Part shown: piece by piece, positions 8,049-47,694 of the stretch
Numbering within the stretch: the stretch's first letter is position 1
Layout: every line of letters begins with the position of its first letter
NCBI GenBank assembly: GCA_016188355.1
Contig: JACPHY010000003.1
Location: forward strand, 8,170-72,169
DNA: 64,000 nt
Source: Candidatus Uhrbacteria bacterium
GTDB lineage: Bacteria > Patescibacteriota > Patescibacteriia > JACPHY01
Direction of reading: 5' to 3'
The notes under the pieces: generated by a model
Seen by the model: only the letters and a program-made list of their open reading frames with translations
The model's database searches: none
What the model was told of the DNA's origin: nothing
Translations under genes and position numbers: made by a program

Positions 8049-9926
8049 ATGCGCGTCACGCTCACCGACTGTCTTGCCCAGTTTCCGCATCGCGCCATTC
8101 GCCCGGAGCAACAGGAACTCCTCGCCGCAATCACCGCAACTCCGGAGAGCATCACCATTGAGGGACCGACGGGCCTCGGAAAAACGGATGTGGCGATGTC
8201 CGTGCTCCGCGCGCGAGCGGCGACAGTGGCACAGGAACTTCGCGATCGCCAAGCGACCAATCCCGCCGCACGACCGCACCCGCGATGGTACTGCACGCCG
8301 ACGAAGAACGAGGTGGAACAAATCCAGCATCGATTCCCAGAGGTGCGCGTCATCTATGGGCGCAATGAGTATCCCTGCGCGTACTACCATGCGCGCGGCA
8401 TGCCGCTTGCCGCGGACGCCGTGCCATGCGCGACGCTCCGGAAGCAGCACTGCTGCCCGCATGCCATCGTGCCAGAGACCGGTCTCCCGGAAGATCCGCA
8501 CGCCGAGCCCTGTGCGTACCTCGCGGCGAAACATGCAGCGAAATCCGGAGGCATCGTCGTGACGACCACCGCATTTTTCCTCACGAGCTCGCTGCTCGCG
8601 CGCGATTGGGAAACGCCGGATACGGTCGTCATGGACGAAGCGGACCAACTCGCGGACATCGCGAGCCAACTCTTTGCGACGCACATTACCGATTCCGCGC
8701 TGCTCCAAATCTTGGCGCTCCTAGAACGCATCAACGACGCGCATCACGCGGATCTCTTCCGCACGTTCCTCGACATACTCCAACGGCACACGAGTCGTAC
8801 CCCTGGGGAATCGAAAATCCTCGAACCCACGCAGACCATCGCCCTGATCCAGCTCCTCGAACGTGCGCATTATCCGCATCTCCATGAACGCATCCAAACC
8901 GCGATGCGATCCGGGGTCTTGGATCCCGTGCAACAGCAATCGGAGCTCCGCATCCTCGAGGACCTCACGCGGAACATTCTCCGTTACCTTCGCCATCTCC
9001 GCTTCGCCGTAGGCGACGCCGATCGCGGGCCGCGCAATCTTGCCTTCGCGTATGCGGTACGAGAACGCGCGGACGGCACCATGGTCTGCCGCCTCGTCAT
9101 TGAGCCGTACCTGGTGAATGGACTCATCCGCGCGGCGGTTGGCGACCATGTCCTCGCCATGTCCGCCACCATTGGCGATGGGACGTACTTCGGATACGAA
9201 ACCGGACTCACCGCGCCGGTGTACCGAGTCGCGCGGTCCCCGTTTCCGATCCATCACCGACGCATCTATCTCCCCATCGATACACCCGACCTCGCCCATC
9301 GGGCACAGGAACGCAACACGCTGCGCGACGCGGTCATCCGCATTCTCGACTGCTGCGCGAAGTTCCGCGCGCGTGGCCATCGCGCACTGATCGTCACCAT
9401 GTCCAATGCGGAGCGCGATCACTTCGTGCGCCGCGCACCCGATGCGGGCCTCACTCTCATCTCGTATGGGAACGGCGTGACCGCACGTAATGCGCTCGAA
9501 CGATTTGTGCAGGGGGAAGGCGATGTGCTCGTCGGCACGTCCGCACAGTTCGCCACCGGCATTGATCTCCCGAAACAGATCGCGCCCATCATTGTGGCGC
9601 TCCGACCGAAGTATAGTAATCCGCACGATCCGCGCGCACAGTTCGAGGAATTGCAGCGCCTCTCCAAGGGCAAACGATTCGCCCGAGAACGATATCGCGC
9701 CACCAAGAATGCACTGCAGGTCTCCGGTCGCAATTGGCGCACCCCGGAGAGCGTAGGCATCACCATCTTCTACTCACGCCAATTCCGCGATCTCTTTCCG
9801 CAGGGATTACCGAGGTGGCTCGAACCCGCGTACGTCTCGACGCGTACACTCGACCAAATCGTCGAGGAGGCATGTGTCCTCCTCGACGCCGCACCCGACC
9901 TCCCGATCGCCGCCAGCAGCACCTGA
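8049..9926 (+). CDS. Rad3/XPD/DinG-like SF2 DNA helicase with Fe-S cluster domain
   Basis: 625 aa. Walker A 'IEGPTGLGKTD', motif II 'VVMDEADQL'. Cys-rich insertion between motifs I and II ('YPCAYYHARG...VPCATLRKQHCCPHAIV...EPCAYL') is typical of 4Fe-4S Rad3-family helicases. C-terminal 'VLVGTSAQFATGIDLP' matches motif V. RBS AAGGAGG upstream. Confidence 0.8.
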   Translation: MRVTLTDCLAQFPHRAIRPEQQELLAAITATPESITIEGPTGLGKTDVAMSVLRARAATVAQELRDRQATNPAARPHPRWYCTPTKNEVEQIQHRFPEVRVIYGRNEYPCAYYHARGMPLAADAVPCATLRKQHCCPHAIVPETGLPEDPHAEPCAYLAAKHAAKSGGIVVTTTAFFLTSSLLARDWETPDTVVMDEADQLADIASQLFATHITDSALLQILALLERINDAHHADLFRTFLDILQRHTSRTPGESKILEPTQTIALIQLLERAHYPHLHERIQTAMRSGVLDPVQQQSELRILEDLTRNILRYLRHLRFAVGDADRGPRNLAFAYAVRERADGTMVCRLVIEPYLVNGLIRAAVGDHVLAMSATIGDGTYFGYETGLTAPVYRVARSPFPIHHRRIYLPIDTPDLAHRAQERNTLRDAVIRILDCCAKFRARGHRALIVTMSNAERDHFVRRAPDAGLTLISYGNGVTARNALERFVQGEGDVLVGTSAQFATGIDLPKQIAPIIVALRPKYSNPHDPRAQFEELQRLSKGKRFARERYRATKNALQVSGRNWRTPESVGITIFYSRQFRDLFPQGLPRWLEPAYVSTRTLDQIVEEACVLLDAAPDLPIAASST

Positions 9927-11811: not shown

Positions 11812-13098
11812 ATGCACCCATCGCGGATCATCCAGCGCACTGCGCTGCTGATCGTCCTGGCCATGATGCTCCCCGTCTCTGCGCTCGCTGCTCCGTGGCA
11901 TGTCGTGATCACCCGCATGACGGAGGAACGCTCCCTCTGGCTCCTCCCCTGCGCGTTCGTGGCGGGCATGGTGAGCGTGGCCACGCCGTGTGTCCTCCCC
12001 ATGCTCCCCATCACGCTCGGCACGCTCGGCGTACGATCGGACACCACGCGACGCATCACCCTGCTCCGCACGCTCGCGTACATCGGCGGCATCCTCGTCA
12101 CGTTCATGGGACTCGGCATGCTCGCGGGCATTGCCGGTAACGCCGTGAGTACCATCTTCACGTATACCTCCGTGCACCTCGTCCTGGCTGCCGTCTTCCT
12201 GATCTTGGCACTGAGTACGTTTGGCGTGTACACGCTCCAGCTGCCGTCCGCGCTCCAGACGCGATGGAGCCGTATCGGCGGCGCGAGCATCTTCGGCGCA
12301 TTTGCCGCCGGAACCGTCGGCGGCCTCCTCGCACTCCCCTGCACCGGTCCGGTCCTCGCCGGCATCCTCGGCGTGATCGGTTCTGCGGGATCCGCGATGT
12401 ACGGCGCGCTCATCCTCGGCTGCTACGCGCTCGGATTCGGCATGCCGTTCCTCGCGCTCGGCATCGGACTCATCCGTATGCCCAAGACGCGCACATGGAC
12501 GCAGCGCACGGAGTACGGCATCGGCGCGCTGCTGCTCATCGGTGCATTCTGGATGCTCCGAAATGCGTTTCCGGATATCGCGACGCCGTTCGCGCACCCG
12601 GCAGCCTTCCTCCCTGCGCTTGGTCTCATTGCCATCGGCAGTGCCACGCTCATCTGGACCGCATCGCTCTCGACATTCGCCGTCGTGCGTGGCGTGGGGG
12701 GCATCACGCTCGGGGGCGTCCTCGTCATGAGTGGACTTGCGGCTCCCACCAACACCGATTGGTGCGAGGAGGGCCGTGATGGTGCGTGCCTTGCGACCGC
12801 GTGCGCCGCCCATCCCATCACCGTGGTGGACGCGCATGCGCCATGGTGCACCTCCTGCCGCACCCTCGAACGCGAGACGCTCGCCGCCCCATCGGTCCAA
12901 CAGGCGATCGGCATCTACGGCCGCGTGCGCATCGATGTGGACGCGCATCCGCAGCACTTCGATCGATTCGCGCCACGCGGATTGCCGGCGATCACCTTCC
13001 TCGATCGCACCTGCACGCCAGTCCACGGCGTCACCGGTCTCATTCCCCCAGCGCAGCTCCTCGATCACCTTCGCCGAGCGGAAATACTCGTGCAATGA
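11812..13098 (+). CDS. thiol:disulfide interchange protein, DsbD/CcdA transmembrane domain fused to C-terminal thioredoxin-like domain
   Basis: 428 aa. Signal peptide, multiple TM helices with paired cysteines ('VATPCVLPMLP', 'ALPCTGPVLAG'), and a C-terminal 'WCTSC' CxxC thioredoxin motif. RBS AAGGAG. Confidence 0.8.
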   Translation: MHPSRIIQRTALLIVLAMMLPVSALAAPWHVVITRMTEERSLWLLPCAFVAGMVSVATPCVLPMLPITLGTLGVRSDTTRRITLLRTLAYIGGILVTFMGLGMLAGIAGNAVSTIFTYTSVHLVLAAVFLILALSTFGVYTLQLPSALQTRWSRIGGASIFGAFAAGTVGGLLALPCTGPVLAGILGVIGSAGSAMYGALILGCYALGFGMPFLALGIGLIRMPKTRTWTQRTEYGIGALLLIGAFWMLRNAFPDIATPFAHPAAFLPALGLIAIGSATLIWTASLSTFAVVRGVGGITLGGVLVMSGLAAPTNTDWCEEGRDGACLATACAAHPITVVDAHAPWCTSCRTLERETLAAPSVQQAIGIYGRVRIDVDAHPQHFDRFAPRGLPAITFLDRTCTPVHGVTGLIPPAQLLDHLRRAEILVQ

Positions 13099-13110: not shown

Positions 13111-13434
13111 ATGCGCATCTACGCGATTCTCCTCACCCCTGACGCCATGACGGGTTTCCGCCAATTCGCGGAAACCGATGGCCACGAACTCGTGCCGTTG
13201 GACGATTGCACCGCATTGCCCTCCGAACTGGCCACAACGGATTGCATCGCCATTCCGATTAGTCTCTTCGTGCCCCTCACCCGCGCGCTCCGATCGCGCC
13301 AGGTACCGACGGAGCTCAATGTCATGGCCGTACTCCCCATGGGCACGGTCGCTAGCAACCGCACGACGGCCGCAGACGGCCTGAGCGTGGTCTACATATC
13401 CGAAGATGATCTTATCCGCCTCCCCTCGCCATAA
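13111..13434 (+). CDS. hypothetical protein (107 aa)
   Basis: Starts 13 nt after the dsbD-like stop, with GGGAG 8 nt upstream. No recognisable motif. Confidence 0.3.
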   Translation: MRIYAILLTPDAMTGFRQFAETDGHELVPLDDCTALPSELATTDCIAIPISLFVPLTRALRSRQVPTELNVMAVLPMGTVASNRTTAADGLSVVYISEDDLIRLPSP

Positions 13435-14357: not shown

Positions 14358-15206
14358 ATGCCCATCGGCGCGCACGTATCCATTGCGGGGGGAATAGTTC
14401 ATGCGCCCGCGAACGCGGCAGCGCAAGGATGTGAGTGCTTCCAGATGTTCACCCGATCCCCTCAAGGCGGCGCGGCACCTCCGCTCACCGAGACGGTTGT
14501 GGCCGCATTCCGCGCCGCATGCGATGCACACCAGCAATCGCTCTGGGTCGTGCACACGCCGTACTACATCAATCTCGCCTCCGCGGAAGAACGCATTCGG
14601 AGCTCCTCCACGCGAGTCATCCGCGAAGAACTCGAACGCGCGTCGTGCATCGGTGCACAGTACGTCATGGCGCATCTCGGTTCTGCACGTGACGTGGGCG
14701 AGGCAGCGGGACGTGCACTCGTGGTGGCTGGACTCACGAAGGCGCTCGATGGATACACCGGATCCGCCACCTTCTGCATCGAAATTGCTGCTGGTGCGGG
14801 AGCAGTCATGGGCGATACGTTTGAAGAAATCGCAGAGCTCATTGCGGGCGTGGAACGAAACATCCATCGCAACGGCATGATCGGCGTCTGTTTCGATACG
14901 CAGCATGCCTTCGGTGCAGGATATGATATCCGTACGGTGGATGCCGTTGCAGCGACCGTCGCGGCACTGGACGCCACCATCGGTCGCGAGCGCCTCCGTA
15001 TGTCCCACATCAACGACTCCAAGGTGGAACTCGGTGCACAGAAAGATCGCCACGAGCATATTGGGAAAGGGCACATTGGTATCGACGGCATTCGCGCCGT
15101 CGTGCAGCACCCCGCATTCCGCGGCCTCCCCCTCATCCTCGAAACCGAAGACGAGGGACGCGAAGCGGATGTGCAACTCCTCAAATCATTCCGCAATCAC
15201 CCGTAA
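14358..15206 (+). CDS. nfo: endonuclease IV (AP endonuclease, xylose-isomerase-like TIM barrel)
   Basis: 'VHTPYYINLAS', 'CFDTQHAFGAGYD' and 'HINDSK...KDRHEHIGKGHIG' match Nfo metal-binding motifs. Confidence 0.9.
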   Translation: MPIGAHVSIAGGIVHAPANAAAQGCECFQMFTRSPQGGAAPPLTETVVAAFRAACDAHQQSLWVVHTPYYINLASAEERIRSSSTRVIREELERASCIGAQYVMAHLGSARDVGEAAGRALVVAGLTKALDGYTGSATFCIEIAAGAGAVMGDTFEEIAELIAGVERNIHRNGMIGVCFDTQHAFGAGYDIRTVDAVAATVAALDATIGRERLRMSHINDSKVELGAQKDRHEHIGKGHIGIDGIRAVVQHPAFRGLPLILETEDEGREADVQLLKSFRNHP

Positions 15207-16885: not shown

Positions 16886-17047
16886 ATGCGCCTTCTCTTC
16901 TCGCTCGTGCTGGTGAGCGGTCTTTGGTTGCTTATCTCGCCGTTTGTGTTGAGCTATCTCGGCGTGGGGCGCGCGAATGCGCTCCTCGTGGGGCTGATCG
17001 TGACTATCCTGGGAGTCATGGGGGTGGCTGGAACCACTGGGAAATAG
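16886..17047 (+). CDS. small hydrophobic membrane protein (53 aa)
   Basis: 'MRLLFSLVLVSGLWLLISPFVLSYLGVGRANALLVGLIVTILGVMGVAGTTGK', two predicted TM helices, immediately after trxB. No RBS check possible beyond the gap. Confidence 0.3.
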   Translation: MRLLFSLVLVSGLWLLISPFVLSYLGVGRANALLVGLIVTILGVMGVAGTTGK

Positions 17048-17149
17048 AGGATTGGGGCTCCTCCATCGGATGGACGTTCAGCCAGTTCTTGATCCGTGAC
17101 AATCACGCATCTCGGAAAATACTTGCCGACTGGCAGTAATTTTGGACAC

Positions 17150-17177
17150 AAAGATTAGCTCCACTGAGCTAATCTTT
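17150..17177. promoter_or_regulatory. perfect 12-bp palindrome AAAGATTAGCTC-cact-GAGCTAATCTTT in an AT-rich spacer (operator- or terminator-like)
   Basis: Seen directly in the sequence. Followed by 'gtttgc'. Lies at the left boundary of the small-ORF island. Confidence 0.5.
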
Positions 17178-17188
17178 GTTTGCATGTC

Positions 17189-17226
17189 TTGACAGAAATG
17201 ACAATCAATGCTAGTCTATAAATATA
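17189..17226 (+). promoter_or_regulatory. AT-rich promoter-like region (TTGACA ... TAGTCT/TATAAAT)
   Basis: 'cTTGACAgaaatgacaatcaatgcTAGTCTATAAATatac'. A -35 consensus with either a 17-nt spacer to weak TAGTCT or a 22-nt spacer to TATAAAT. Only strongly AT-rich block in the vicinity. Confidence 0.35.
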
Positions 17227-17392
17227 CCCTGTTTCAGGATTACTACTTCCCAATCGCAATCTCGTCAGACACAGCGCAACGGCCATCCTTCATTCGAGGT
17301 ATCGAAAATGGATGTCGACGCGCTGACACGAGAGAGGCTCGCGCGGGCCTGTAATGAATCCTGAACACCCGCCATTCCGTTCACCAACGGAC

Positions 17393-17433
17393 CCGAGCTC
17401 TCTCCTTTCTGGAGGGGGCTCGGTTTGTTTGTG
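17393..17433 (+). terminator. strong rho-independent terminator (13-bp stem CCGAGCTCTCTCC/GGAGGGGGCTCGG, loop tttct, tail TTTGTTTGTG)
   Basis: Hand-folded: all 13 positions pair (two G-U). The U-rich tail follows immediately. Confidence 0.6.
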
Positions 17434-17510
17434 CCTTCCACTCGAGCGACGGAGTCCCCAGTGGATTCCGGTGCTCAAGTGGGGGTCACACGCGCAGTCG
17501 AGTGAGCACC
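17434..17510 (+). repeat. family-A element, copy 0 (divergent)
   Basis: 'tCCACtCGAGCGAcGGAGtCCCcAGTGGaTTCCgGTGCTCAaGtGGG' aligns at about 80% to the consensus of copies 1-3. Followed 30-40 nt later by GGAGGG + ATG of the next ORF. Confidence 0.5.
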
Positions 17511-17540
17511 CTGTCACCGGAAGGCATGGAGGGAAACGAG

Positions 17541-17969
17541 ATGCCGCAGCGATCGAAGCAGTACAACGGAAACGGGCTCGCGGCGAGCCTGCAGCACGAT
17601 CTCATCACGAGAAAGAGCAGGATGGGGGAAATCCCGGACGAGGCATGGGCCGACAAGGGACCGGAGGGGCAGGGCGACTTCGATCCTGATCTCACCGTCA
17701 CGCCGGACCCGACGATCGAAGAGGACCTGCTCGACCAGGCGCCCGAGAACTGGTTCCAGCATCAGCGAAGGATGCGCCTGCTCGGCGAGGACAGCATCGA
17801 TCCGGACTCGATCCCGGACATGAGTCTCAACCCCGAGACGATCCTCATCGCGTGTGAGGAGGAGACCGAGGAGAGCACCGCGCTCGCCGCCGAGGCCACG
17901 ACGGCCTGGCGCGCCACGAAGGAGCGCAGCAGGCGCACGGTCCGCTTCCCCACCAGCGCCGTGGCCTGA
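17541..17969 (+). CDS. hypothetical acidic protein (142 aa), island ORF
   Basis: ORF 17502..17969 with start moved to the ATG at 17541 (GGAGGG 9 nt upstream). Asp/Glu-rich; no motif recognised. Confidence 0.45.
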   Translation: MPQRSKQYNGNGLAASLQHDLITRKSRMGEIPDEAWADKGPEGQGDFDPDLTVTPDPTIEEDLLDQAPENWFQHQRRMRLLGEDSIDPDSIPDMSLNPETILIACEEETEESTALAAEATTAWRATKERSRRTVRFPTSAVA

Positions 17970-18059
17970 GCCACTCGCACCCACCAGCAAGCAAGCACAT
18001 TCATCACAGACGCGTTTGCGACGTGACCTCTGACTCACTCTGCGAAGCACTTCGCAGAG

Positions 18060-18120
18060 GAGGAGTCGGAGGCCCACCCGAGCGATGGAGGCCCAAGTGG
18101 CTTCCAGTGCTCAGGCGGGT
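18060..18120 (+). repeat. family-A element, copy 1
   Basis: 'ggaggcCCACCCGAGCGATGGAGGCCCAAGTGGCTTCCAGTGCTCAGGCGGG'. Internal hairpin GGAGGCC-caagt-GGCUUCC (one G-U). Confidence 0.6.
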
Positions 18121-18152
18121 CACGCAACTTCACTCGAAAAGGAGACCGAGAA

Positions 18153-18455
18153 ATGGCAATGCATGTGATCACCGCACAGGAGAGCAGGATGGAGCCCATC
18201 GTGATCGACGGCGAGACTGTCGTCACCCTGCACCCGGCAAAGGACCGATTTGAGGCGGCGAAGATCGCGCATCAGCGCATTCGGCCGCACAACGGGCAGC
18301 ACTTCAGCTACACCGTGTTTCCGGGCGAGGGCCGCGACCCCGCCCGCAACCTCAGCCGGGAGTACGCGGGACGGGTGACGCACTGCATCATCTCGATGCC
18401 GGAGGCGATCCAGCTCTCCCCCGGCGACCAGGTCGCCCTGGTCCTGTACCCGTAA
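18153..18455 (+). CDS. hypothetical protein (100 aa), island ORF
   Basis: AAGGAG RBS 8 nt upstream of the ATG; 33 nt after family-A copy 1. No motif recognised. Confidence 0.5.
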   Translation: MAMHVITAQESRMEPIVIDGETVVTLHPAKDRFEAAKIAHQRIRPHNGQHFSYTVFPGEGRDPARNLSREYAGRVTHCIISMPEAIQLSPGDQVALVLYP

Positions 18456-18458
18456 CTG

Positions 18459-18528
18459 GTCCCCGACTCCGGTCGGGGCCCCACCCGAGCGATGGAGGCC
18501 CAAGTGGCCTCCAGTGCTCAGGCGGGGA
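18459..18528 (+). repeat. family-A element, copy 2
   Basis: 'ggtCCCCGACtccGGTCGGGGcCCCACCCGAGCGATGGAGGCCCAAGTGGCCTCCAGTGCTCAGGCGGGG'. A 5' hairpin CCCCGAC/GTCGGGG plus a perfect GGAGGCC-caagt-GGCCTCC hairpin. Confidence 0.6.
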
Positions 18529-18917
18529 TGGCCCAAGCACCCCGAACACGGCTACCGCCCACGCGAACCAGAGAGGAGGGTCCGTGCGACTGCGATACCC
18601 TTCTGGGTTTCTCTAACGAATCGGGGCTGAACCCATGCGGTTCAGTACCCAGTCACCCCACCCCCGCCAGAAGAGAGGAGGAGGGTCCGTGCGATCTCAG
18701 TACCCCAGCGGCGAAACGTAAGGCCGCTAAGGACAATCCTCGCTCAGGGAACAACGCTTGCCGCGATCACCAACGGCGAATCCCGACGCGGCCCGTTTCC
18801 TGAGCGCGATCTCCCGCCCCACGCCCCGCCCCATTTCCCCGACGTCATCCCACCGGCACCACGCCGCACACAGGATGATCCCGTCCCTTACGACACACAG
18901 ACGCGCTAGCGACAGCG

Positions 18918-18983
18918 CCCCCGACATCGGTCGGGGGTCCACCCGAGCGCCGGAGGCCCAAGTGGCATCCGGTGCTCAGGCGG
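18918..18983 (+). repeat. family-A element, copy 3
   Basis: 'CCCCCGACatcGGTCGGGGGTCCACCCGAGCGCCGGAGGCCCAAGTGGCATCCGGTGCTCAGGCGG'. The 5' hairpin is conserved through different bases than copy 2. Confidence 0.6.
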
Positions 18984-19024
18984 ATATTTCCTGGATGCAC
19001 CTTATTGAAGAAAGGAGGCCCGCA

Positions 19025-19474
19025 GTGCGCGCAAATGGATTTTGGCAACGTGGCGAATTCCGACTGGTTCGGCTTTCGCGATACGATAACTCCCGCGCCA
19101 TGCGGGAATGGTTCCCGCCCACGGCAGGACGCGGCATTTGGGCCTGGGCGGTGAAACTCTGTGATCTTCCGGAGTTCCACCACATCTATCGCGATCAATC
19201 GCGGCAGATTGTACACCCGAGGCGCGATGCCCGAGCGTGGGCGATCCGATGGACGGAGCTTGACGCCTACGTCTGTGGGCTCTCCGAGCACCATCCGGAG
19301 TGTGCGGAATTTGACCCCTCCCTTCACCACGTCCAAATCGTGGACCGCATGCAACCTTGTTGGTGCGGCTGCGATAGGACGGATGGTCCGTTCCGATACG
19401 TCACGAACTCCTGGGCAATCTACGTCGAAGGACCCATGCGCCGTCGACGCTGCCTCCCCACGCACCACCCCTAA
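19025..19474 (+). CDS. hypothetical Cys/Trp/His-rich protein (~149 aa), island ORF
   Basis: GTG start 9 nt after GAAAGGAGG, about 40 nt after family-A copy 3. '...HHPECAEFDPSLHHVQIVDRMQPCWCGCDRTDGPFRY...'. The upstream part of track ORF 18758..19474 runs through the repeat and was rejected. Confidence 0.45.
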   Translation: MRANGFWQRGEFRLVRLSRYDNSRAMREWFPPTAGRGIWAWAVKLCDLPEFHHIYRDQSRQIVHPRRDARAWAIRWTELDAYVCGLSEHHPECAEFDPSLHHVQIVDRMQPCWCGCDRTDGPFRYVTNSWAIYVEGPMRRRRCLPTHHP

Positions 19475-19519
19475 TTCACCCTGACTCCCACTTCGCGAAA
19501 TGCTTCGCGGGACAAGTGC

Positions 19520-19593
19520 GGTCGGGGGTCCACCCGAATTTCGGAGGCCGCGCTATGGTGTCGCAAGATGCCATACCTCCGGAATTCAGGCGG
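19520..19593 (+). repeat. family-A element, copy 4 (indel variant)
   Basis: 'GGTCGGGGGTCCACCCGAatttCGGAGGccgcgctatggtgtcgcaagatgccataCCTCCGgaattCAGGCGG'. The central hairpin is replaced by a longer nested hairpin (UAUGGU..GCCAUA). Confidence 0.5.
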
Positions 19594-19630
19594 ATCGTAT
19601 ACGGAACGCACTTTCAAGGAGGAGGACATC

Positions 19631-19783
19631 GTGACGAAAATTGACGTGCAACGAAGGCAGTTCGCAATCCCTTGGCCCAGAAGCACGCTCGGGATCATGG
19701 GCGTTCTGGGCGCACTCGCGCCGTATGTGGCCGCTGCATGCCTCGTCGCATACATCATGTACCGATCCTGCTTAGGTTCGTAG
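19631..19783 (+). CDS. small membrane peptide (50 aa), island ORF
   Basis: GTG 7 nt after AAGGAGGAGG. 'VTKIDVQRRQFAIPWPRSTLGIMGVLGALAPYVAAACLVAYIMYRSCLGS', one TM helix. Confidence 0.4.
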   Translation: MTKIDVQRRQFAIPWPRSTLGIMGVLGALAPYVAAACLVAYIMYRSCLGS

Positions 19784-19799
19784 CAAAAAGGAGCACCTG

Positions 19800-20249
19800 A
19801 TGCGCATCGCACACTTCCTGTTGAACCTCGACATCCCGGACCATCAGCCGACGGCAATCCCAGCATTCCGGATGGACGGCGCGAAGATGCACGCGAACTC
19901 GAGTCCGTACATCGTGTGGCTGCCGGGGAGCGTCGATCAGACGCTGCTCGCGAGCCTCACGATCATCGGAACGCGCCGAGCCGGCGAGCGTGTGCACGTC
20001 GTCCACGCGTCCGGATCTCCGGAGCTCATCGGATCGGGACCTGGGGGGAGCATGGCAACGCAGTTGACCTGCCAACCGGGGAGCGCGTTCTCGATCGTCC
20101 GTGACTACCTCGGCGAGCGACGATGCCAGACTCTGCGCTGGAACAACGACCGCTTCACCAAGGAGCAGGCGCCGCGCGAGCTCATCGACCGCGTGCTCGG
20201 CCCGCCGCCGATGCCCACCAACCCCGCGAGCGCGGAGGCGCGGTCGTGA
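19800..20249 (+). CDS. hypothetical protein (149 aa), island ORF
   Basis: AAAAAGGAG RBS upstream. Stop overlaps the GTG of the next small ORF (GTGA). Confidence 0.5.
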   Translation: MRIAHFLLNLDIPDHQPTAIPAFRMDGAKMHANSSPYIVWLPGSVDQTLLASLTIIGTRRAGERVHVVHASGSPELIGSGPGGSMATQLTCQPGSAFSIVRDYLGERRCQTLRWNNDRFTKEQAPRELIDRVLGPPPMPTNPASAEARS

Positions 20250-20374
20250 AACGCATCATCGGCATCGTCCTCCTGCTCGCGCTCGTCGCGTGTGAGGAGG
20301 GTGGCTGTTTCGATCCGGAGGCGATGAGCGGTAACGACCTCGGGCGCATGAAGCTCGCCGAACGCGCGCAGTAG
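20246..20374 (+). CDS. small putative lipoprotein (42 aa)
   Basis: 'VKRIIGIVLLLALVACEEGGCFDPEAMSGNDLGRMKLAERAQ'. Signal peptide with an L-V-A-C lipobox. Translationally coupled to the previous ORF. Confidence 0.35.
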   Translation: MKRIIGIVLLLALVACEEGGCFDPEAMSGNDLGRMKLAERAQ

Positions 20375-20570
20375 AGCACCCGAGACATCCAGCGGATCGA
20401 TGCGGAGCTCAATGATCTCCGCAGGCGCATAACCGAGTTCGAAGAGCGCTGCCCCGCGCGCTGATACGATACCTGAGCCTGTCGGTCCGCACCTCGTGCG
20501 GCCGACGGGTCTCCCTTCGTGGAGTCGATCGCAAGATCGAAGATACGAGAAGGAGCGGCGAGATACATGC

Positions 20571-20637
20571 CACTCCTCCGCCCACCCGGATTTCCGAGGA
20601 CGCGCCTTCATTCCTCACGGAGTGATTGCCTCGGAAT
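20571..20637 (+). repeat. family-B element, copy 1 (about 67-nt imperfect palindrome)
   Basis: 'CCACCCGGATTTCCGAGGacgcgccttcattcctcacggagtgattgCCTCGGAATTCCAGGCGGG'. The arms are imperfect reverse complements; the central 30 nt is conserved with copy 2. Confidence 0.55.
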
Positions 20638-20710
20638 TCCAGGCGGGCGTGAACGGATTGTGTGCGGTGGAGCACCGATCGCGAGTCACTCCCGGTTTGC
20701 GGAGGGGAAG

Positions 20711-20977
20711 ATGGTCAACGTCCATGTTCGTTCACTCGAAATCCTGCCGACGGAGGAAGAGCACGCCGCCATGCAGGCCTTTCGAGAAATCTGCGGGGGT
20801 CCGGACACGCCGGAAACCCTGCTGTTGCTCGCGGAAAGCGCGCAACTCTTGCAGAAACCGTTCTATCGGGTCACGCAGAACGCCGAGGGACTGCGCGCGG
20901 CTGCGGCGCGCAGCATACTCGAGCGCATGGCACACAACCGCGGCGTCGGCCTGGGTGCCCTGATCCAGTCGGCGTAG
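20711..20977 (+). CDS. hypothetical protein (88 aa), island ORF
   Basis: GGAGGGGAAG-ATG. 'MVNVHVRSLEILPTEEEHAAMQAFREICGGPDTPETLLLLAESAQ...'. Upstream in-frame extension rejected because it crosses the repeat. Confidence 0.45.
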   Translation: MVNVHVRSLEILPTEEEHAAMQAFREICGGPDTPETLLLLAESAQLLQKPFYRVTQNAEGLRAAAARSILERMAHNRGVGLGALIQSA

Positions 20978-21132
20978 CCGAATGCCCTGATCCCGACCCC
21001 GTAAGGTCGGGATCCCACCAGAGCAGCAGAGACATCCCATTTCTGCCGTTCCGGTGGAAGGACCACATCTGTGGTCGCATCCCATCGCGCATTCGTTTCA
21101 TCGATCACAACAACAGTAGGAGGAGGACGTCG

Positions 21133-21708
21133 ATGCACACTGCGCAGCGACAGTACACATCGGATCTCGATCCGGAGGTGCTCGACCAGATCGCCAGTGC
21201 ACTCGAGCCAGCAGGAGATCCAATTCCGAAACTCCAGGACGACGGCTACGGCGATCCGTACTGCGACAGCGAGCCCGAGAAGGAACTACGACGCCATCAA
21301 CAGGAGTGGGAAGACTTCTATGGTCGCTTCGGGTGGGACGGAAATCGCCCGCTCATCAATGTCGCGCACAATGTCGTGTACGATCACGGGCCGTGGGAGA
21401 TCGATTTGCGCATGCGCTTCGCGCTTGACGCATACCAGACCATCGGACGTCGACTCGCGGAATTCGAGACAGCACCACCACGCGCAAGCACAGCGCGATC
21501 AGTGATCGTGGAGACTGGCCGTACGCCACGCGGCCTCCACGAATGCCGCAAGGGCGCGCACAAACGATGGCGCCGCGCACGAAGCGAGGGTGGCCGCCGC
21601 CTGCCCCGTGCGCCGCTCCAGCTGCGACGCCGCGGTGGCACGCAGGATGACATCTTCGGTATGTGGTGGGATCAAGAGAGCGGTTGGCAGCCGATCTTTA
21701 AGAAGTAG
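21133..21708 (+). CDS. hypothetical protein (191 aa), island ORF
   Basis: AGGAGGAGG 7 nt before the ATG. The N-terminal 100 aa are acidic and non-repetitive; the C-terminal tail is Arg-rich, so the true stop may be earlier (possible frameshift). Confidence 0.4.
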   Translation: MHTAQRQYTSDLDPEVLDQIASALEPAGDPIPKLQDDGYGDPYCDSEPEKELRRHQQEWEDFYGRFGWDGNRPLINVAHNVVYDHGPWEIDLRMRFALDAYQTIGRRLAEFETAPPRASTARSVIVETGRTPRGLHECRKGAHKRWRRARSEGGRRLPRAPLQLRRRGGTQDDIFGMWWDQESGWQPIFKK

Positions 21709-21761
21709 CTCAGTGTAACGATATCTTCGGGGGAGCACGTGCACGATCTTCGCGCGTGCTC

Positions 21762-21808
21762 CGTCCACCCGGATTCCGAACTCTTCCCCCGTTCGGCATC
21801 CAGGTGGA
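21762..21808 (+). repeat. family-B-related palindrome (CCACCCGGATTCCGAAC-tcttccccc-GTTCGGCATCCAGGTGG)
   Basis: 17-bp imperfect inverted repeat sharing the 'GTCCACCCGGATT' start with family B. Its right arm supplies the GGAGGTGA RBS of ORF 21817. Confidence 0.45.
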
Positions 21809-21816
21809 GGTGATCC

Positions 21817-22236
21817 ATGAAGCTCCTTGCTCTGGTTCTCGGTACACTCGCCGCGTTTGCGGCGTGGTGGCTGCTCATGAGCCGCGATGACGTCATCGTG
21901 GCGTCGTACGCGGCACTCGTGTCCACGGCGAGTGCAACAATGGCATTCGCGCTCATCACGCGTTCGCACGTGCCGAAAATCCGCATTCCCATTGAAATCA
22001 CGGCCATCATGGGACTCGCGATCGGTCTCATCACCGAAGGTGCTGCGTTCGCCATCACGGGATACTCGGACTTCAGTGTACTCGCCATCATCGTCGGCGC
22101 GATCGCGTGCGGCGTGATCCTCGATCAACTCCTCACCATTGCCCATCGCGCCGGATACGAATCCGCAGAGCCGGGCCGCCACGAGTCCGAGCGGAAGACA
22201 ATCGAAGAGCAGCTGCCCGAATGGCCGCCGGAATAG
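21817..22236 (+). CDS. membrane protein (139 aa, 4 predicted TM helices), island ORF
   Basis: GGAGGTGATCC-ATG. Hydrophobic segments 'LLALVLGTLAAFAAWWLL', 'IMGLAIGLITEGAAFAI' and 'VLAIIVGAIACGVIL'. Confidence 0.5.
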   Translation: MKLLALVLGTLAAFAAWWLLMSRDDVIVASYAALVSTASATMAFALITRSHVPKIRIPIEITAIMGLAIGLITEGAAFAITGYSDFSVLAIIVGAIACGVILDQLLTIAHRAGYESAEPGRHESERKTIEEQLPEWPPE

Positions 22237-22359
22237 ACGGAAATCGTCGGTAGCGATCCCTGCATCTGGAATCCCCGGACCCGACGGCACCCGCTGTCGG
22301 ATCCTCCCTCGGGCGATGGAGTCTTCGGATTCCATCTTCCGAGAAGAGGAGTACCTTCC

Positions 22360-23277
22360 ATGCGCATCATGCTGATTGCGACGCTCAGCGGTTGCATTGC
22401 CTGTGCAACCACACGAGGGACTTCCGAACGCGAACTCCAGGCGGTTCGCAATGCGACAAACGGAGACACCTATCGCGGCACGATTCCCGCGCTGCACGCG
22501 CTCTTCGACGCACTCGAAAAGGACGATGCCCCACAGATCCTCCAGGCGCTCACCGCGATGCGTTTCGGGGCGGCCACAGCGGCGGCAGTGCAGTGTCCTC
22601 CCACGGAGCTGAAGGAGAGCATCCGTATCTCCGCGATACCGGGTCCCCGCGCGATGATCGTGCGCGCATCGGTTATCTGCGTCATCGGCCCATACACGAA
22701 CGCAACGCTCCATTACGGGGAAGAGAGCCGTGCCTTCGATTCGGTGCAATTCCCAGAAGATCCCGATGCGACGCTTTCGCCTTCCCAGCTCCGCACGCAG
22801 TACGAAGATCTCCTGATTGCGGATGCTGCCGCGTGGGGGAATTCCGGACTCCGTATCCCTACGGAGTTCGCTACCAACATCGTATTGCTCCTCGCGAACT
22901 ACCAGGAAGCACTTGAGGGGAAACGCACGATCATGGTCGAACCCAGCACATCTGGGTTCGACATCCGTACAGAACACCACTTCCGTTTCCGTCTCACCCG
23001 CGCGAAAGTCATCCCAACCCTGGAAGCGCTCGGGAAGCTGGCGGATGACTACCACGATGCGAATGGCGTCGCGACTCCATGGGAGGTCATGCGACTCACG
23101 GAGGATGCGCCATACCTCCTCGCGGTCGCATTCGATCTCTTCCCTGACTCCCGCGCGCTGCCGCAGCTCGCACAGGATGGAGTCGATTTCGGACGCGCCG
23201 CACTCGTACGGACTGGTCTTGGCAATCTCAAAAACAGCGTCACCAGTGACGCAATACAGATCCCCTCCTTCGAATAG
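22360..23277 (+). CDS. putative lipoprotein (305 aa), island ORF
   Basis: 'MRIMLIATLSGCIACA', a signal peptide with L-S-G-C lipobox. RBS GAGGAG upstream. No family recognised. Confidence 0.5.
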   Translation: MRIMLIATLSGCIACATTRGTSERELQAVRNATNGDTYRGTIPALHALFDALEKDDAPQILQALTAMRFGAATAAAVQCPPTELKESIRISAIPGPRAMIVRASVICVIGPYTNATLHYGEESRAFDSVQFPEDPDATLSPSQLRTQYEDLLIADAAAWGNSGLRIPTEFATNIVLLLANYQEALEGKRTIMVEPSTSGFDIRTEHHFRFRLTRAKVIPTLEALGKLADDYHDANGVATPWEVMRLTEDAPYLLAVAFDLFPDSRALPQLAQDGVDFGRAALVRTGLGNLKNSVTSDAIQIPSFE

Positions 23278-23337
23278 TTCTCACCACAGAGGACGCGTAT
23301 AGCCACCCCCTTCCGCGGGGCAGGAAGCGCGTCCTCC

Positions 23338-23405
23338 GTCCACCTGGATTTCCGGGACCGCGCCTTCACCTCGCAAGAGATGATTGCCCGGAAGTCCGGG
23401 TGGAC
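23338..23405 (+). repeat. family-B element, copy 2
   Basis: 'CCACCTGGATTTCCGGGaccgcgccttcacctcgcaagagatgattgCCCGGAAGTCCGGGTGG'. The arms match 15 of 17 as reverse complements; about 80% identical to copy 1. Confidence 0.55.
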
Positions 23406-23470
23406 GCGCTCCGTCCGTTGCAGCGCATCCCGCACATTTCCATCACAATACGCCACAAGGAGGGCGGATA

Positions 23471-23740
23471 ATGCCCATTTCCATCACGACGCGAGAAGCC
23501 ATCTGCATCATCGATAGCACGAAGCGAAGAGAGGATCCGTGCGCTCACGTGGAGCTCGCCCCTGGCCGCTACGAACTCGAGGAAATACAGAATCCATACG
23601 GCTTCGATGCTCCATGGTTCGTGCTCAAGGGCACGAAACGAGGGATGGCACGAAAAGCGTGGATGGACGAAGGAGCATTCGAGGGTCTCACCGAGGCGGA
23701 GATCGATGCCATCCGCAATCGACCCGAGCGCTCGGCCTGA
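23471..23740 (+). CDS. hypothetical protein (89 aa), island ORF
   Basis: CAAGGAGGGCGGATA-ATG, about 65 nt after family-B copy 2. 'MPISITTREAICIIDSTKRREDPCAHVELAPGRYELEEIQNPYGFDAPWFVLKG...'. Confidence 0.45.
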   Translation: MPISITTREAICIIDSTKRREDPCAHVELAPGRYELEEIQNPYGFDAPWFVLKGTKRGMARKAWMDEGAFEGLTEAEIDAIRNRPERSA

Positions 23741-23760
23741 AGAAAGAGGGAGAACACCCC

Positions 23761-24177
23761 ATGCAAATTTCCTGCTTCATGATCGACTTCAAGGATCCGA
23801 CCAAGATCATCCGACTTCCGTTCGGTAGTGTGGGGGAGCGATGGGCCACCTTCCATGATGATGGGCCTGGTGCCGCGCAACTCTCACACATCCCCGATCC
23901 CGCTCCTGCCCACGCGTTCATCGTGGCGCACTTCTCGCTCATCAACAGCGGGGAGACGGTGACCATCGATCTCATGGGTCCTGGTCACCATCTCTACGGA
24001 TCTGCGCTCGACCATGCGGCTGCGGCAAAGCCATTCACGCTCCTCCTCAACGCACGAACGCACGCCGAATTCACCTTCCGCGTGCAAAACAAGCACTGCA
24101 CCTGGATCCTCCGCTGGGACGGCTGCGAGCTGAGCAGCGTGCCGAAGCATGGCAACGATTTCCATATGCCCCACTGA
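23761..24177 (+). CDS. hypothetical protein (138 aa), island ORF
   Basis: AGGGAG RBS. 'MQISCFMIDFKDPTKIIRLPFGSVGERWATFHDDGPGAAQLSHIPDP...'. The upstream part of the track ORF overlaps the previous gene. Confidence 0.45.
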   Translation: MQISCFMIDFKDPTKIIRLPFGSVGERWATFHDDGPGAAQLSHIPDPAPAHAFIVAHFSLINSGETVTIDLMGPGHHLYGSALDHAAAAKPFTLLLNARTHAEFTFRVQNKHCTWILRWDGCELSSVPKHGNDFHMPH

Positions 24178-24201
24178 GCATCGGCTGGAGCGGAGAGACA
24201 C

Positions 24202-24483
24202 GTGAACGTCTTCGGATGGCTCATGTCCCTCTACCTGGCCGCAGCGTTGACACGGAGCACCTACCTCTCGATCGTTGCCGCACACCATGTGTACGACGCA
24301 CGCGCGGAAGCAGCAACGGTCCCGATGGCGGTGCGCGAAATCGCGAATGCGGCCGTCCGCAGCGCCGAGAAACAAGCATATGTCGCGGGATGCGACTTGC
24401 TCATGTGGTGCTTCTGCGGCGCATTCCTTATTCTGGTCATCCTACCGACGATCCCCGAACACCGAAAGGAGTCCCATCCATGA
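24202..24483 (+). CDS. small membrane protein (93 aa), island ORF
   Basis: GTG start after GGAGCGGAGAGA. Two hydrophobic segments. Stop overlaps the next start (ATGA). Confidence 0.4.
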   Translation: MNVFGWLMSLYLAAALTRSTYLSIVAAHHVYDARAEAATVPMAVREIANAAVRSAEKQAYVAGCDLLMWCFCGAFLILVILPTIPEHRKESHP

Positions 24484-24836
24484 GACCGTTCATCTTCGCC
24501 TGGACCTTCGGCCGCGAGCAGGCGAGGGATCCGGATGCGGCGACGCTCGCGCTCGCATGGGCAGCCATGGAATGCGGAGCGACCCGAGAGGCGGCCGCAC
24601 TCGAATTCATCCACCTCGGATGGAGCATCGCGGCCGCGACGCGCATCGCGAAGGCGGCAGAGGCAGAGCTCCGGCGAGAGCGCATCTCGTACGTCGTCGG
24701 ACTTATCCGCGAGGCACTCGCGGATAAGTCCGACGACCACGCCATCCGCGCGCTCCTCACCACCGAGCGGTGGATGCGGCCGCAGGAGCTCGATGCACTC
24801 ATCGCCGACCTCCGTGCGGCAGCACTCGTTGCATGA
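24480..24836 (+). CDS. hypothetical protein (118 aa), island ORF
   Basis: AAAGGAG RBS, ATGA coupling to the previous ORF. Followed by a terminator. Confidence 0.45.
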   Translation: MRPFIFAWTFGREQARDPDAATLALAWAAMECGATREAAALEFIHLGWSIAAATRIAKAAEAELRRERISYVVGLIREALADKSDDHAIRALLTTERWMRPQELDALIADLRAAALVA

Positions 24837-24852
24837 TCATAGATATTCCCGG

Positions 24853-24890
24853 CCCGGAGCTGCCCTCGCAGCTTCGGGTCTTTCGTTTTC
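24853..24890 (+). terminator. rho-independent terminator (CCCGGAGCTGC-cctc-GCAGCTTCGGG + TCTTTCGTTTTC)
   Basis: 11-bp stem (one G-U) plus U-rich tail, directly after the stop at 24836. Near-duplicate of the terminator at 26297. Confidence 0.6.
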
Positions 24891-25327
24891 ATGTGCGCAG
24901 GCGGAATCTGCTCACCCGAACGAACGGAAGAACGCACACCACACGCGGTTACACGGATATTTCGGATGCATTCCTGCCCGATGCTCCACAGGCACTTCAT
25001 CTCTTTAGAACTCTCACCCGAAACATTTCATCGTGTAACGTAGTATCTACTATTGTGACGGTATATATGGAAGGTCCAATAGGCACGGGTGGACGATGGC
25101 GGCTGCGCTGAACGGATAGTGGGAACGTCGTTTGCCGGAGCCAGAACGAAGTAATGCCTCCCTCAAAGAAGCCATCGTCCACCCATGTCTGCACCCCATC
25201 GCGCTGAGCGCGACGGGGTGCAATGTTGCGCCAAAACAACACGGAGGATGTTTGCGATCGCATTGACACGCTCGCATGCTGGTGATAGGACAAAGGTGTA
25301 GCTCGTTCCTTTTCCTGGAGGTGCATC

Positions 25328-26275
25328 GTGGAAGTCGAAGTACGCATGGATCCGCAGCGGCCGCCAATGTCGCTCGAGGAATTCCGCCGAATCGCACCGC
25401 CGCACGCGGTCGGCATCGATGGGTGCGTAGACGCTGGCCCGTGGCGGGATTTCGGATCTACCGGACCGCGCTACGTGTGGAATCATCATTCGCACGTCGA
25501 TCGCCTCGCCACGCGCGCCACCTGCATGCAGGCGCTCCTCGAACTGCGCTGTGGCGATCTCGACGAGATCCTGCGCGGATCCACCGGCCGACCATTCGCG
25601 ATCGTCTTCGCCGATGACTGCGACGCCGATGCGTCGAGTACCATCGTCATCCTGCGGCGATCGGAACTGTTCGCCCATCCCGTGAACCCGCTCGCCAATC
25701 GCTTCGTCGGAGCGGAAGATCTCATGGATACCTTCGCAGGCGCATACCCGTACCCGTGCGACCTCGAACTACTCGAGGAACTCGCATGGATTTTTCAGCC
25801 CTACGACGATTTCCGGCAGGAGGGCGGACTCGAACGGAAGATCGCGGCGGAGTACCTCCGCGTCGTTGATCTGATCGAGGCGAACATCGTACAGTACCTC
25901 GTCGGACGCGGGAAACGTCGAAAACTCGACCTCCGGTACGACGTACTTCAGACCGGCAACGGATGGACGATGGTGCGCGAACACGGCGCGCAGGCGCGGA
26001 CGAAAATGCGCGACGACGGTATCCGGGTGTTCGTTTCGGTGCATGAACGCACCTCCGGCACACGCGACGTTCGCATTGGGAAAATGCACCTCCATGCGCG
26101 CGGCGATCTCATCGCGATTTGCAACGATCTCAATGCACGCGAAGGGGTCGCGGCCGATCGCTGGGGCGGCGGAACGAACATCATCGGCAGCCCGAAGGTC
26201 GCCGGCACTAAACTCGACGATCGCACGATCATGGAGGTGCTCAACCACCATCTCGGCTTGCCGCTCGCCGCATGA
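25328..26275 (+). CDS. hypothetical protein (315 aa), last large ORF of the island
   Basis: GTG start 6 nt after GGAGGTG. Non-repetitive sequence. Followed by a terminator. No family recognised. Confidence 0.5.
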   Translation: MEVEVRMDPQRPPMSLEEFRRIAPPHAVGIDGCVDAGPWRDFGSTGPRYVWNHHSHVDRLATRATCMQALLELRCGDLDEILRGSTGRPFAIVFADDCDADASSTIVILRRSELFAHPVNPLANRFVGAEDLMDTFAGAYPYPCDLELLEELAWIFQPYDDFRQEGGLERKIAAEYLRVVDLIEANIVQYLVGRGKRRKLDLRYDVLQTGNGWTMVREHGAQARTKMRDDGIRVFVSVHERTSGTRDVRIGKMHLHARGDLIAICNDLNAREGVAADRWGGGTNIIGSPKVAGTKLDDRTIMEVLNHHLGLPLAA

Positions 26276-47162: not shown

Positions 47163-47694
47163 ATCTTATGAGACCTCTGCAAGAATCGCTTTCGTGCCAG
47201 GGACGTGATGTTCGAGCGAGCTGCGCGACGCAGACCCGAGCGATATCCAGCGGATCTCGTGAACGGTCGAGGAACGCAGCGCAGCCGAACAGCGCGTTCC
47301 TGGCGCGAATCTGGATTTTTGCAGAGGTCTCTTATTGCAATATCCGATGAACACCATTGGTGCGCACCCGCTAGTCCGAAGTCACCGTACCGTAATGACA
47401 AAACGATGTCAATGGAGCACACGGGGATCGATTCCCCCGTCTCATTTCCTGATTCCAAAACCTGCGGCGCCGCGCACGCGTCATGGAGCATTCGTGGGGT
47501 CGTCCACCGCTTCTCCACCTCCCATCCACGGAAACGCCTCCGAGCGCGCTTGTCCTGCGTCCGAACATGCGCGAAAATAAAACGCGTAGCCGGTGGTATC
47601 TCGTTCGCGGCGGAGGAGCGCGCACGGGGATCTTGTTGGTGCGTGATGGTCCTCGTATACTCCACCCGCGGGTTAACGCGTGTCGGTGGTACGT

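Follow-up and report, generated by a model that had tools for sequence, protein, structure and literature searches.

Candidatus Uhrbacteria belongs to the Candidate Phyla Radiation (CPR; Patescibacteria), bacteria with very small genomes, yet about 8 kb near the origin is spent on a fast-changing, strongly promoted operon of orphan genes, and one structured module is kept between these genes in every relative examined. What does this module do? The question was addressed in a stretch of 64,000 nucleotides (nt) of a Candidatus Uhrbacteria chromosome (contig JACPHY010000003.1, positions 8,170 to 72,169 of the forward strand), hereafter the window, in which an earlier note had described five copies of a direct repeat of about 60 nt with a covarying internal hairpin. 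Our analysis finds at least ten copies in a single predicted operon, and points to intercistronic RNA punctuation, namely processing and stabilization of the transcript, as their most likely function, to which we assign a probability of roughly 45%.

The two-hairpin module and its copies

The five copies described earlier are indeed present: a repeat finder returned copies of families D1/D2 at 17418-17482, 18054-18118, 18461-18525 and 18919-18983, to which D2/D3 add one at 19521. The 45-nt core, CCACCCGAGCGATGGAGGCCCAAGTGGCTTCCAGTGCTCAGGCGG, is exact at 18074-18118, and as a whole it folds into a single hairpin of about 20 base pairs (bp), which we call H2; the GC-rich hairpin upstream is called H1, and both together form the module, of about 70-110 nt. 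In copy 2, the H2 pairs from the base are C-G, C-G, A.C, C-G, C-G, C.A, G-C, A-U, G-C and C-G, followed from position 11 onward by G.U, A.G, U-A, G-C, G-C, A-U, G.U, G-C, C-G and C-G, and then the loop. The central hairpin of 7 bp proposed in the earlier note does covary, but it is only the tip of H2. Its description of single copies is correct when these are numbered from 0: GGCTTCC with a G.U pair at 18060, a perfect GGCCTCC at 18459, GGCATCC with one mismatch at 18918, and a longer nested hairpin at 19520.

H2 is closed at its base by CCACC...GGYGG, and all 35 copies compared below read (Y)CCACCCGRG...CYCAGGYGG(GA) there. In the general scheme of the module H2 has 15-25 bp; regardless of sequence, its helix spans 13-19 bp in the short form and 22-30 bp in the long one, to which 1-2 flanking pairs are added. 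The short form (family A of the earlier note) carries the loop CAAGU. Most relatives also have the long or B-type form, present in the window at 19530, 20582 and 23340. Its internal loop, CGCGCC(U)U facing UGAUUGCC, is asymmetric and conserved, and its covarying apical stem is capped by GCAA in 8/8 long variants, over the closing stems GUC/GAU, CUC/GAG, UUC/GAA and AUC/GAU. H1 has 7-13 bp, varies in sequence between copies and in most of them ends 0-2 nt before H2. Its arms are, for instance, CCCCGAC/GTCGGGG, CTCTGCGAAG/CTTCGCAGAG, GGAGCACG/CGTGCTCC, CCGACGG/CTGTCGG and CCCGACC/GGTCGGG, and the earlier observation that this flanking hairpin is kept through different bases holds, as seen from CCCCGAC/GTCGGGG at 18461 and CCCCCGAC/GTCGGGGG at 18917.

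Reading and folding revealed five further copies, at 20582-20646, 21015-21057, 21765-21807, 22303-22349 (divergent) and 23340-23403, so that the number given earlier, although made up of real copies, falls short of the total. All lie on the + strand, in intergenic positions, between 17.4 and 23.4 kb. A covariance model, R1, was built from six window copies and run unfiltered over both strands of the window. The seed copies scored 49-70 bits (E 1e-10 to 4e-15), and R1 also recovered those at 19531, 22305 and, weakly (E 0.8), 20583, with no credible match beyond 17.4-23.4 kb; it missed the copy at 23340, which was assigned by sequence and folding. Compared with shuffled sequences, all ten modules fold with z = -4.2 to -7.8, none of 200 shuffles being as good. 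The copies are as follows (window coordinates):

17436..17484, +, H2 of copy 1 (CCACTC...AAGTGG); R1 68.2 bits, E 1.2e-14; U-A replaces C-G at stem position 5
18030..18120, +, module 2; H1 CTCTGCGAAG/CTTCGCAGAG within CTGACTC/GAGTCGG; H2 18072-18120; z -6.1; R1 70.3 bits
18461..18527, +, module 3; H1 CCCCGAC-UCCG-GUCGGGG; H2 18479-18527; R1 69.9 bits
18917..18985, +, module 4; H1 CCCCCGAC-AUCG-GUCGGGGG, abutting H2 18937-18985; R1 69.7 bits
19487..19593, +, module 5; split H1; B-type H2 19530-19593, apical stem with GCAA cap; R1 24.7 bits
20551..20649, +, module 6; H1-like hairpin; B-type H2 20582-20646; internal loop CGCGCCUU / UGAUUGCC
20988..21060, +, module 6b; H1 CCCGACC/GGTCGGG; H2 21015-21057 (CCACCAGAGC...); z -7.3; R1 49 bits
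21732..21809, +, module 7; H1 GGAGCACG/CGTGCTCC; H2 21765-21807, its 3' arm entering the Shine-Dalgarno (SD) sequence of the next open reading frame (ORF); R1 54.4 bits
22281..22349, +, module 8 (divergent); H1 CCGACGG/CTGTCGG; H2 22303-22349, UUCG loop, SD in the 3' arm; R1 18.1 bits, E 0.034
23303..23405, +, module 9; weak H1; B-type H2 23340-23403 (CCACCTGG...CCGGGTGG), base fully paired, GCAA loop

As had been noted, the element stands between small ORFs: the preceding stop codon is 5-35 nt away, and the next start follows after 10-76 nt. Between H2 and the SD further downstream there are 20-60 nt in most copies, and only at 21765 and 22303 does the 3' arm overlap the SD; the modules do not generally occlude the ribosome-binding site. 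Copy lengths in the window (45, 64, 65, 43, 43, 47 and 64 nt; 36-88 nt across all loci) differ by non-multiples of 3, which makes the element non-coding, in agreement with the earlier note. A protein-coding repeat was rejected on the same grounds, together with substitutions that keep pairing rather than codons.

Compensatory changes and related loci

To evaluate the pairing across relatives, both arms of 35 distinct copies from 8 loci were aligned in register from the base (alignment A5). Standard pairs occupy 87.2% of cells, as compared to 70.0% in shuffles (0/500), and covariation scores 0.54, against 0.21 in shuffles (0/500) and at most 0.155 when the partner is slid by 1-3 columns. Changes on both sides occur at 15/17 pairs. 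Moreover, RNAalifold independently predicted the same hairpin from 23 unprocessed short copies, with 13/15 pairs compensatory. No pair is invariant apart from the two outermost C-G pairs, although the CCACC/GGYGG base comes close. H2 pairing is maintained by compensatory changes.

Eight related loci were found by pattern scans and TrxB-anchored look-ups: L003, L011, L012, L020, L021, L022, L023 and L025, L003 and L012 being the same genome. Their TrxB proteins are 63-84% identical to that of the window (84% for L020), and in all of them the element lies just downstream of trxB. In L011, L020 and L021 it follows a pair of trxB and a small SPW-family membrane-protein gene, in the order trxB, SPW, conserved promoter, leader terminator and small ORFs separated by H1-H2 modules. 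The others show parts of this arrangement; L022 and L023 carry the element with no SPW gene called. Array gene content is largely different between loci and few ORFs are common: the first ORF of L003 is STIV B116-like, for example, and L011 carries a PQ-loop protein. Most relatives' contigs end inside the array or just before it, and the element may explain assembly breaks at this locus.

Comparison of single positions shows what is kept. At one orthologous position with conserved flanks in L011, L012 and L021, H2 measures 39, 72 and 88 nt, with unrelated interiors and the same base, which indicates that selection keeps the closing helix and a long hairpin but leaves the interior sequence free. 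The H2 core of module 4 (18939-18983) is identical to L020 12483-12527, module 5 shows 93% identity to L020 14812-14906, and module 6 is homologous to L020 15804-15878. L011 and L021 share a 67-nt H1-H2 copy, 95.5% identical, whose neighbours are not the same in the two loci. The window lacks three cassettes of L020 (13031-14811); in L020, copies of a 28-nt H1-H2 stretch (~13023-13050 and ~14803-14830) bound this segment, both matching window 18919-18946. Other breakpoints lie away from elements, namely window 19616-20251 versus L020 14907-15175, and a deletion at 20558-20573. In four Logan samples of the source population the gene order is the same as in the window. In L011, a tRNA-Ala(UGC) gene (2405-2479) occupies the same intercistronic slot, between an H2 copy (2362-2406), whose last 2 nt its 5' end overlaps, and the 5' untranslated region (UTR) of the following ORF; the other arrays yielded no tRNA.

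The element is confined to these arrays in all sequence examined. The flanks of L020-L026 (~60 kb) contained no copy outside the arrays, nor did the ~56 kb remainder of the window. A pattern scan of GTDB representative genomes gave one true match (L003), the remaining 5/6 being chance matches, and one of JGI metagenomes gave two (L011 and L012), with 9/11 chance matches. Among 50,697 phage records there was no DNA match, and IMG/VR held no true copy: a first pattern gave 0 matches, and the 49 matches to a second were all rejected by the covariance model.

Two further observations concern the relatives. In L021 (7866-8036), a long-type element is nested in the apical part of another, by partial duplication or insertion. 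In L003 (585-1267), a vapBC-like toxin-antitoxin pair with a PIN-domain ORF separates the SPW gene from the array promoter; in L021 (7100-7520) the pair is degenerate.

Function of the module and its alternatives

The array forms one predicted transcription unit of 7.7 kb, with the transcript read from its promoter and terminators. A promoter is followed by a leader of ~170 nt, a U-tailed terminator, 14 ORFs (42-305 aa, 17541-24836) and an end terminator:

17189..17217, +, operon promoter; TTGACA, 17 nt, TAGTCT, with TGc before it (extended -10)
17393..17433, +, leader intrinsic terminator/attenuator with U-tail; 13-bp stem followed by TTTGTTTGTG; fills the H1 position of copy 1
17541-17969, 18153-18455, 19025-19474, 19631-19783, 19800-20249, 20246-20374 and 20711-20977, +, ORFs 1-7, SD-preceded
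21133-21708, 21817-22236, 22360-23277, 23471-23740, 23761-24177, 24202-24483 and 24480-24836, +, ORFs 8-14, SD-preceded
24851..24890, +, operon-end intrinsic terminator with U-tail, from the terminator scan

The -35 hexamer is perfect and is conserved, with its spacing, in L003, L011, L020 and L021 (CTTGACAGAAnTGACA...ATGCTA); a generic promoter scan did not flag the site because the window -10 matches only 3/6. The leader terminator is conserved in L020, L011, L012, L021 and L025. As a whole, the leader (17218-17433) looks attenuator-like, its terminator coming right after the promoter; L020 has a leader of 78% identity, and those of other relatives differ.

It is established that the copies exist, that they are restricted to the array and always in sense orientation, that their pairing covaries, that they have no U-tract and that relatives keep the module while genes differ; RNA punctuation is the reading that we favour for them. 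A structure-specific endoribonuclease would cut at or next to the H1-H2 junction, or in the basal helix of H2. Candidates are RNase III, for which a helix of one and a half to two turns would be a suitable substrate, or a dedicated nuclease recognizing the conserved base. The upstream cistron would then end in H1, blocking 3' exonucleases, and the downstream cistron would start with H2, blocking 5'-end-dependent decay, so that each unrelated gene would be expressed from its own stable monocistronic mRNA. By analogy, an architecture of a hairpin after the stop, an abutting second hairpin and a conserved base would fit a design for cutting polycistronic RNA into protected units. In the predicted transcript, H2 is as long as the imperfect duplex of ~20 bp or more that is the RNase III-type criterion. 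A tRNA is itself a processing signal for RNases P and Z, and the tRNA-Ala in the module slot of L011 counts toward processing.

Several points weigh against this reading. Cleavage, and with it the identity of the nuclease, is wholly inferred. Sequence is conserved at the H2 base, though general RNase III does not need sequence conservation. The module is not needed for every cistron: the four distal genes (23471-24836) and some gene pairs (e.g., 19631/19800/20246) have none, and L020 lacks copy 1. Thermodynamics does not settle the strand either, each strand being more stable in 20/40 copies (Wilcoxon p 0.79). Moreover, stem positions 3 (A.C) and 6 (C.A), the two commonest non-canonical positions, show 38 A.C versus 2 G.U, and 24 versus 2 among 25 non-redundant copies; as A.C at these positions would be G.U on the antisense strand, a bottom-strand structure, in DNA or antisense RNA, might be formed. 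In L022 and L023, both positions are Watson-Crick, so the mismatches there are not essential. At the other positions the ratio of G.U to A.C is 28:10 in the 25 non-redundant copies, over 8 positions, and such a scattered G.U excess is the expectation for a sense-strand RNA helix. The tetraloops also lie on the sense strand, with an invariant GCAA in the long variants and UUCG and UCCG loops in H1. Together, these GNRA and UUCG/UCCG loops, the constant sense orientation and the intercistronic position favour a role in the sense transcript, and we infer that RNA, rather than DNA, is the active form.

Other explanations in RNA were rejected or disfavoured. Intrinsic termination, one of the functions listed in the earlier note, is disfavoured: on the + strand only 17393-17423 and 24851-24880 scored as strong terminators, and no module has a T-run, unlike the U-tailed leader and end terminators of the operon. 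Known classes were checked with Rfam, as the earlier note had suggested. A scan of the window at gathering thresholds of Rfam 15 returned one tRNA only, and scans at E<=1 of 17000-25400, L011 and L012 found nothing on the element, so that a known RNA family was rejected. So was a self-cleaving ribozyme, because hardly any unpaired nucleotide is conserved in the short form, and a TIGR or CRISPR-like array, because the units between repeats are genes of 0.4-1.5 kb. A sigma-54 or extracytoplasmic function (ECF) promoter inside or after the element was also rejected, as spacings read by eye were inconsistent.

Among known systems, the module would work most like the processing hairpins of phage T7 or the stabilizers of the repetitive extragenic palindromic (REP) type, and it looks most like arrays of attC sites. 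The RNase III hairpins of the T7 early region (R0.3-R1.3), chloroplast intercistronic elements and mitochondrial tRNA punctuation are structured elements between cistrons. Here, too, repeated structures stand between small cistrons of one transcript, a helix of about two turns has internal mismatches, and, as proposed here, processed products keep hairpins as stabilizers, with a tRNA in the same slot in L011. Unlike the T7 sites, the module lies on a CPR chromosome and not in a phage, its cleavage is a proposal, and it shows no sequence similarity to them and no Rfam family; moreover, it has two abutting hairpins and a sequence-conserved CCACC/GGYGG closing helix. With the Cas6-processed CRISPR repeats it shares a repeated hairpin of conserved base in one long transcript, possibly read by a dedicated endonuclease, but the inter-repeat units are 0.4-1.5-kb coding genes with SD sequences rather than 30-40-nt spacers, the spacing is irregular and the window has no cas genes. 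The element belongs among intercistronic structured repeats, but it differs in defining features from attC, REP/BIME, intrinsic terminators and every Rfam family. No description of it was found in the literature on integrons and attC in Patescibacteria, hypervariable loci of Uhrbacteria or Parcubacteria RNA motifs. If punctuation is correct, intercistronic processing as known from phages and organelles would have a counterpart on a bacterial chromosome, and the module would be a candidate for a new RNA family served by its own nuclease or binding protein.

The earlier note had also proposed a recombination site, and its other suggestions, a processing signal or a shared cis-acting RNA, are the ones favoured here. 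We consider it unlikely that the modules are a DNA recombination handle, i.e., attC-like sites of a non-integron cassette system, working through an unlinked recombinase or through homologous recombination between copies. The locus has the look of a sedentary integron, or of an attC cluster lacking an integrase (CALIN): a single promoter at one end, promoterless orphan ORFs on the same strand, and imperfect palindromes in direct orientation with a conserved base and an apex hypervariable in sequence and length (36-88 nt). The locus is fixed but its gene content changes from relative to relative, contigs mostly end in or just before the array, and a vapBC-like module lies beside it in L003 and L021. 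Some indels between the window and L020 end in H1/H2, the three-cassette segment included, and a near-identical module occurs in different neighbourhoods of L011 and L021. In the strand test, positions 3 and 6, read as G.T wobbles, favour the bottom strand, whereas the others favour the top. Nevertheless, attC identity itself was rejected: there is no R''/R' consensus (RYYYAAC/GTTRRRY) and no AAC/GTT at the base on either strand, and neither IntI, attI nor any integrase or recombinase domain was found among the ~30 larger window ORFs scanned with Pfam. The mismatches are symmetric 1x1 rather than bulged extrahelical bases, and the module has an extra upstream hairpin, H1. In addition, RNA is indicated by the tetraloops and the scattered G.U pairs, breakpoints do not consistently coincide with the element, one gene order is fixed in the four population samples, and ORFs without homologues elsewhere give no sign of a cassette pool. 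Ordinary homologous recombination between modules suffices for the deletions, and a DNA role need not exclude an RNA role. One may imagine, as a doubtful combination, an integrase-independent gene-cassette platform of CPR bacteria, in which an H1-H2 adaptor would serve both as DNA handle for gain, loss and exchange of cassettes and as RNA insulator and stabilizer of the new cistron, with exchange by a hairpin-binding recombinase or by transformation-driven homologous recombination. A true handle would be a second kind of cassette system besides integrons, and such a platform a functional integron analogue made from different parts in minimal-genome bacteria.

An operator for a sequence-specific RNA-binding protein, recognizing the base (Y)CCACC...GGYGG(GA) and coordinating translation or decay without obligatory cleavage, is an improbable alternative as well. 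It would account for conservation concentrated at the helix base and its immediate flanks among relatives whose TrxB is 63-84% identical, for the free interior, for the overlap of 3' arm and SD at 21765 and 22303, and for the additional conserved internal loop of the long variant; it leaves H1 and its 0-2 nt abutment unexplained, places the SD 20-60 nt from H2 in most copies and has no candidate protein linked to the locus. Quite improbable, in our view, is an element acting on transcription, either a put-like processive antitermination RNA or a U-less attenuator, such that polymerase reads through, or is graded, after the leader terminator. Phage HK022 put consists of two adjacent hairpins, an architecture which the abutting hairpins resemble, and the operon opens with an attenuator-like terminator with the first module directly after it. 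One put site per operon suffices, however, and ten are found here; L020 keeps the leader terminator without the first copy, and both the missing U-tract, which makes termination unlikely, and the lack of conserved alternative H1/H2 pairing speak against attenuation. We likewise give little credence to a selfish or neutral repeat (REP- or MITE-like) without function, spread locally or kept similar by gene conversion, even though a nested element occurs in L021, a half-element remnant at window 24898-24950, and near-identical copies within the array (copies 2 and 3 are 92% identical over the 26-nt D2 repeat). REP/BIME, ERIC, BOX and Correia elements are similarly imperfect palindromes of ~35-70 nt in intercistronic or 3' positions, able to stabilize upstream mRNA. 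Such families of the REP/BIME type are genome-wide and in both orientations, with REP tied to RAYT transposases, but the present element is always intergenic, keeps to a single operon and a single orientation, and is absent from the ~120 kb of other sequence examined; the ORFs scanned contain no transposase or RAYT domain, many independent compensatory changes keep the pairing, and the base stays when the interior is replaced. Either way, as RNA punctuation or as a recombination handle, R1 provides a sequence tag for finding such arrays in metagenomes.

Array genes, chromosomal setting and minor motifs

The array ORFs are orphans by every search made. Pfam gave no match for the 13 of 14 ORFs scanned (all but 20246-20374), PHROGs none for 10 and PADLOC none for 9; the 305-aa ORF had no homologue but itself in 5.8e9 proteins, and the PDB held none for three proteins (two array ORFs and a flanking 315-aa ORF). 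Judged by their sequences, several look like membrane proteins or lipoproteins. A prophage or phage origin was rejected, as there was no phage-record DNA match, PHROG match or IMG/VR copy and only the first ORF of L003 is STIV B116-like; a defence island was rejected for lack of any PADLOC match in the nine ORFs. The GC content at third codon positions (GC3) is 0.85-0.88 in ORFs 17541-17969, 18153-18455 and 19800-20249, as compared to ~0.70-0.79 in housekeeping genes of the window, which could reflect foreign origin or unusual codon selection.

The operon lies downstream of trxB and the SPW-family gene. Neighbouring housekeeping genes encode H+-PPase, DsbD, TrxB, transketolase, aldolase, PolA and DnaA (47680-49104), and the cumulative GC-skew minimum is near 51 kb. 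This minimum and dnaA place the origin ~25-30 kb from the array; in L022, trxB is ~1.5 kb and the array ~4 kb from dnaA (7193-8599). The array ORFs lie on the C-rich strand, which suggests that they may be head-on to replication. At 52288-53562 on the - strand, 28 kb from the array, a 424-aa protein with an NYN (PIN-like RNase) domain is encoded, the only candidate structure-specific RNase seen in the window.

Small ORFs and remnants are also found in and just after the array. ORFs of 10-11 codons with a very strong SD lie at 18584-18616 and 18689-18721, and in L020 at 12128-12160, 12230-12262 and 13371-13406. Their predicted peptides follow M/V-R-x-(R/K/Q)-Y-P-(S/T)-G-(F/E)-x, e.g., MRLRYPSGFL and VRSQYPSGET. 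Some of the changes between the window and L020 are synonymous, suggesting constraint on the peptides; these might act as leader or arrest peptides, or be independent small peptides. The lipoprotein ORF 20246-20374 is shortened by a TAG where L020 (15170-15388) has CAA and reaches 72 aa, and window 20550-20573 retains the SD and ATG of an 88-aa ORF found only in L020 (15488-15754). Past the operon terminator, the remnant at 24898-24950 resembles the 3' half of H2 and a downstream motif (CAGGCGGAAT...GAACGCACACCACAC).

Exact copies of this downstream motif, GCACCTTCAACC, are found in L021, L011 and L012, with a degenerate version in the window; because it belongs to 5' UTRs and also occurs without H2 (L021 8239-8255), it was rejected as part of the hairpin element. 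A 12-nt motif, GCACCTTCA(A/C)CC, resembles the anti-SD end of 16S rRNA (CACCUCCUU) and may, from this resemblance, be a 5'-UTR translation element. It follows H2 at a distance of 5-20 nt and precedes the SD by 10-30 nt in L021 (8045-8056, 8639-8650, 9039-9050, 10823-10834, 12224-12235, 12966-12977 and 14182-14193), L011 (1984-1995) and L012 (2946 and 4793), and is degenerate in the window (18124-18135 and 19608-19619). Finally, a second conserved and apparently structured intergenic element of ~90 nt (GCCGUUGCCCGACA...AAGGCGAGAGCCGnCCUUCAACGGUCGUCGGGGAAC...GGGACUGCAACUGUCCCCAACGGCACC), absent from the window and with no Rfam match, lies at L003 ~3215-3305, L011 1493-1582, L012 4452-4545 and L021 8652-8740, with 90-92% identity between relatives.

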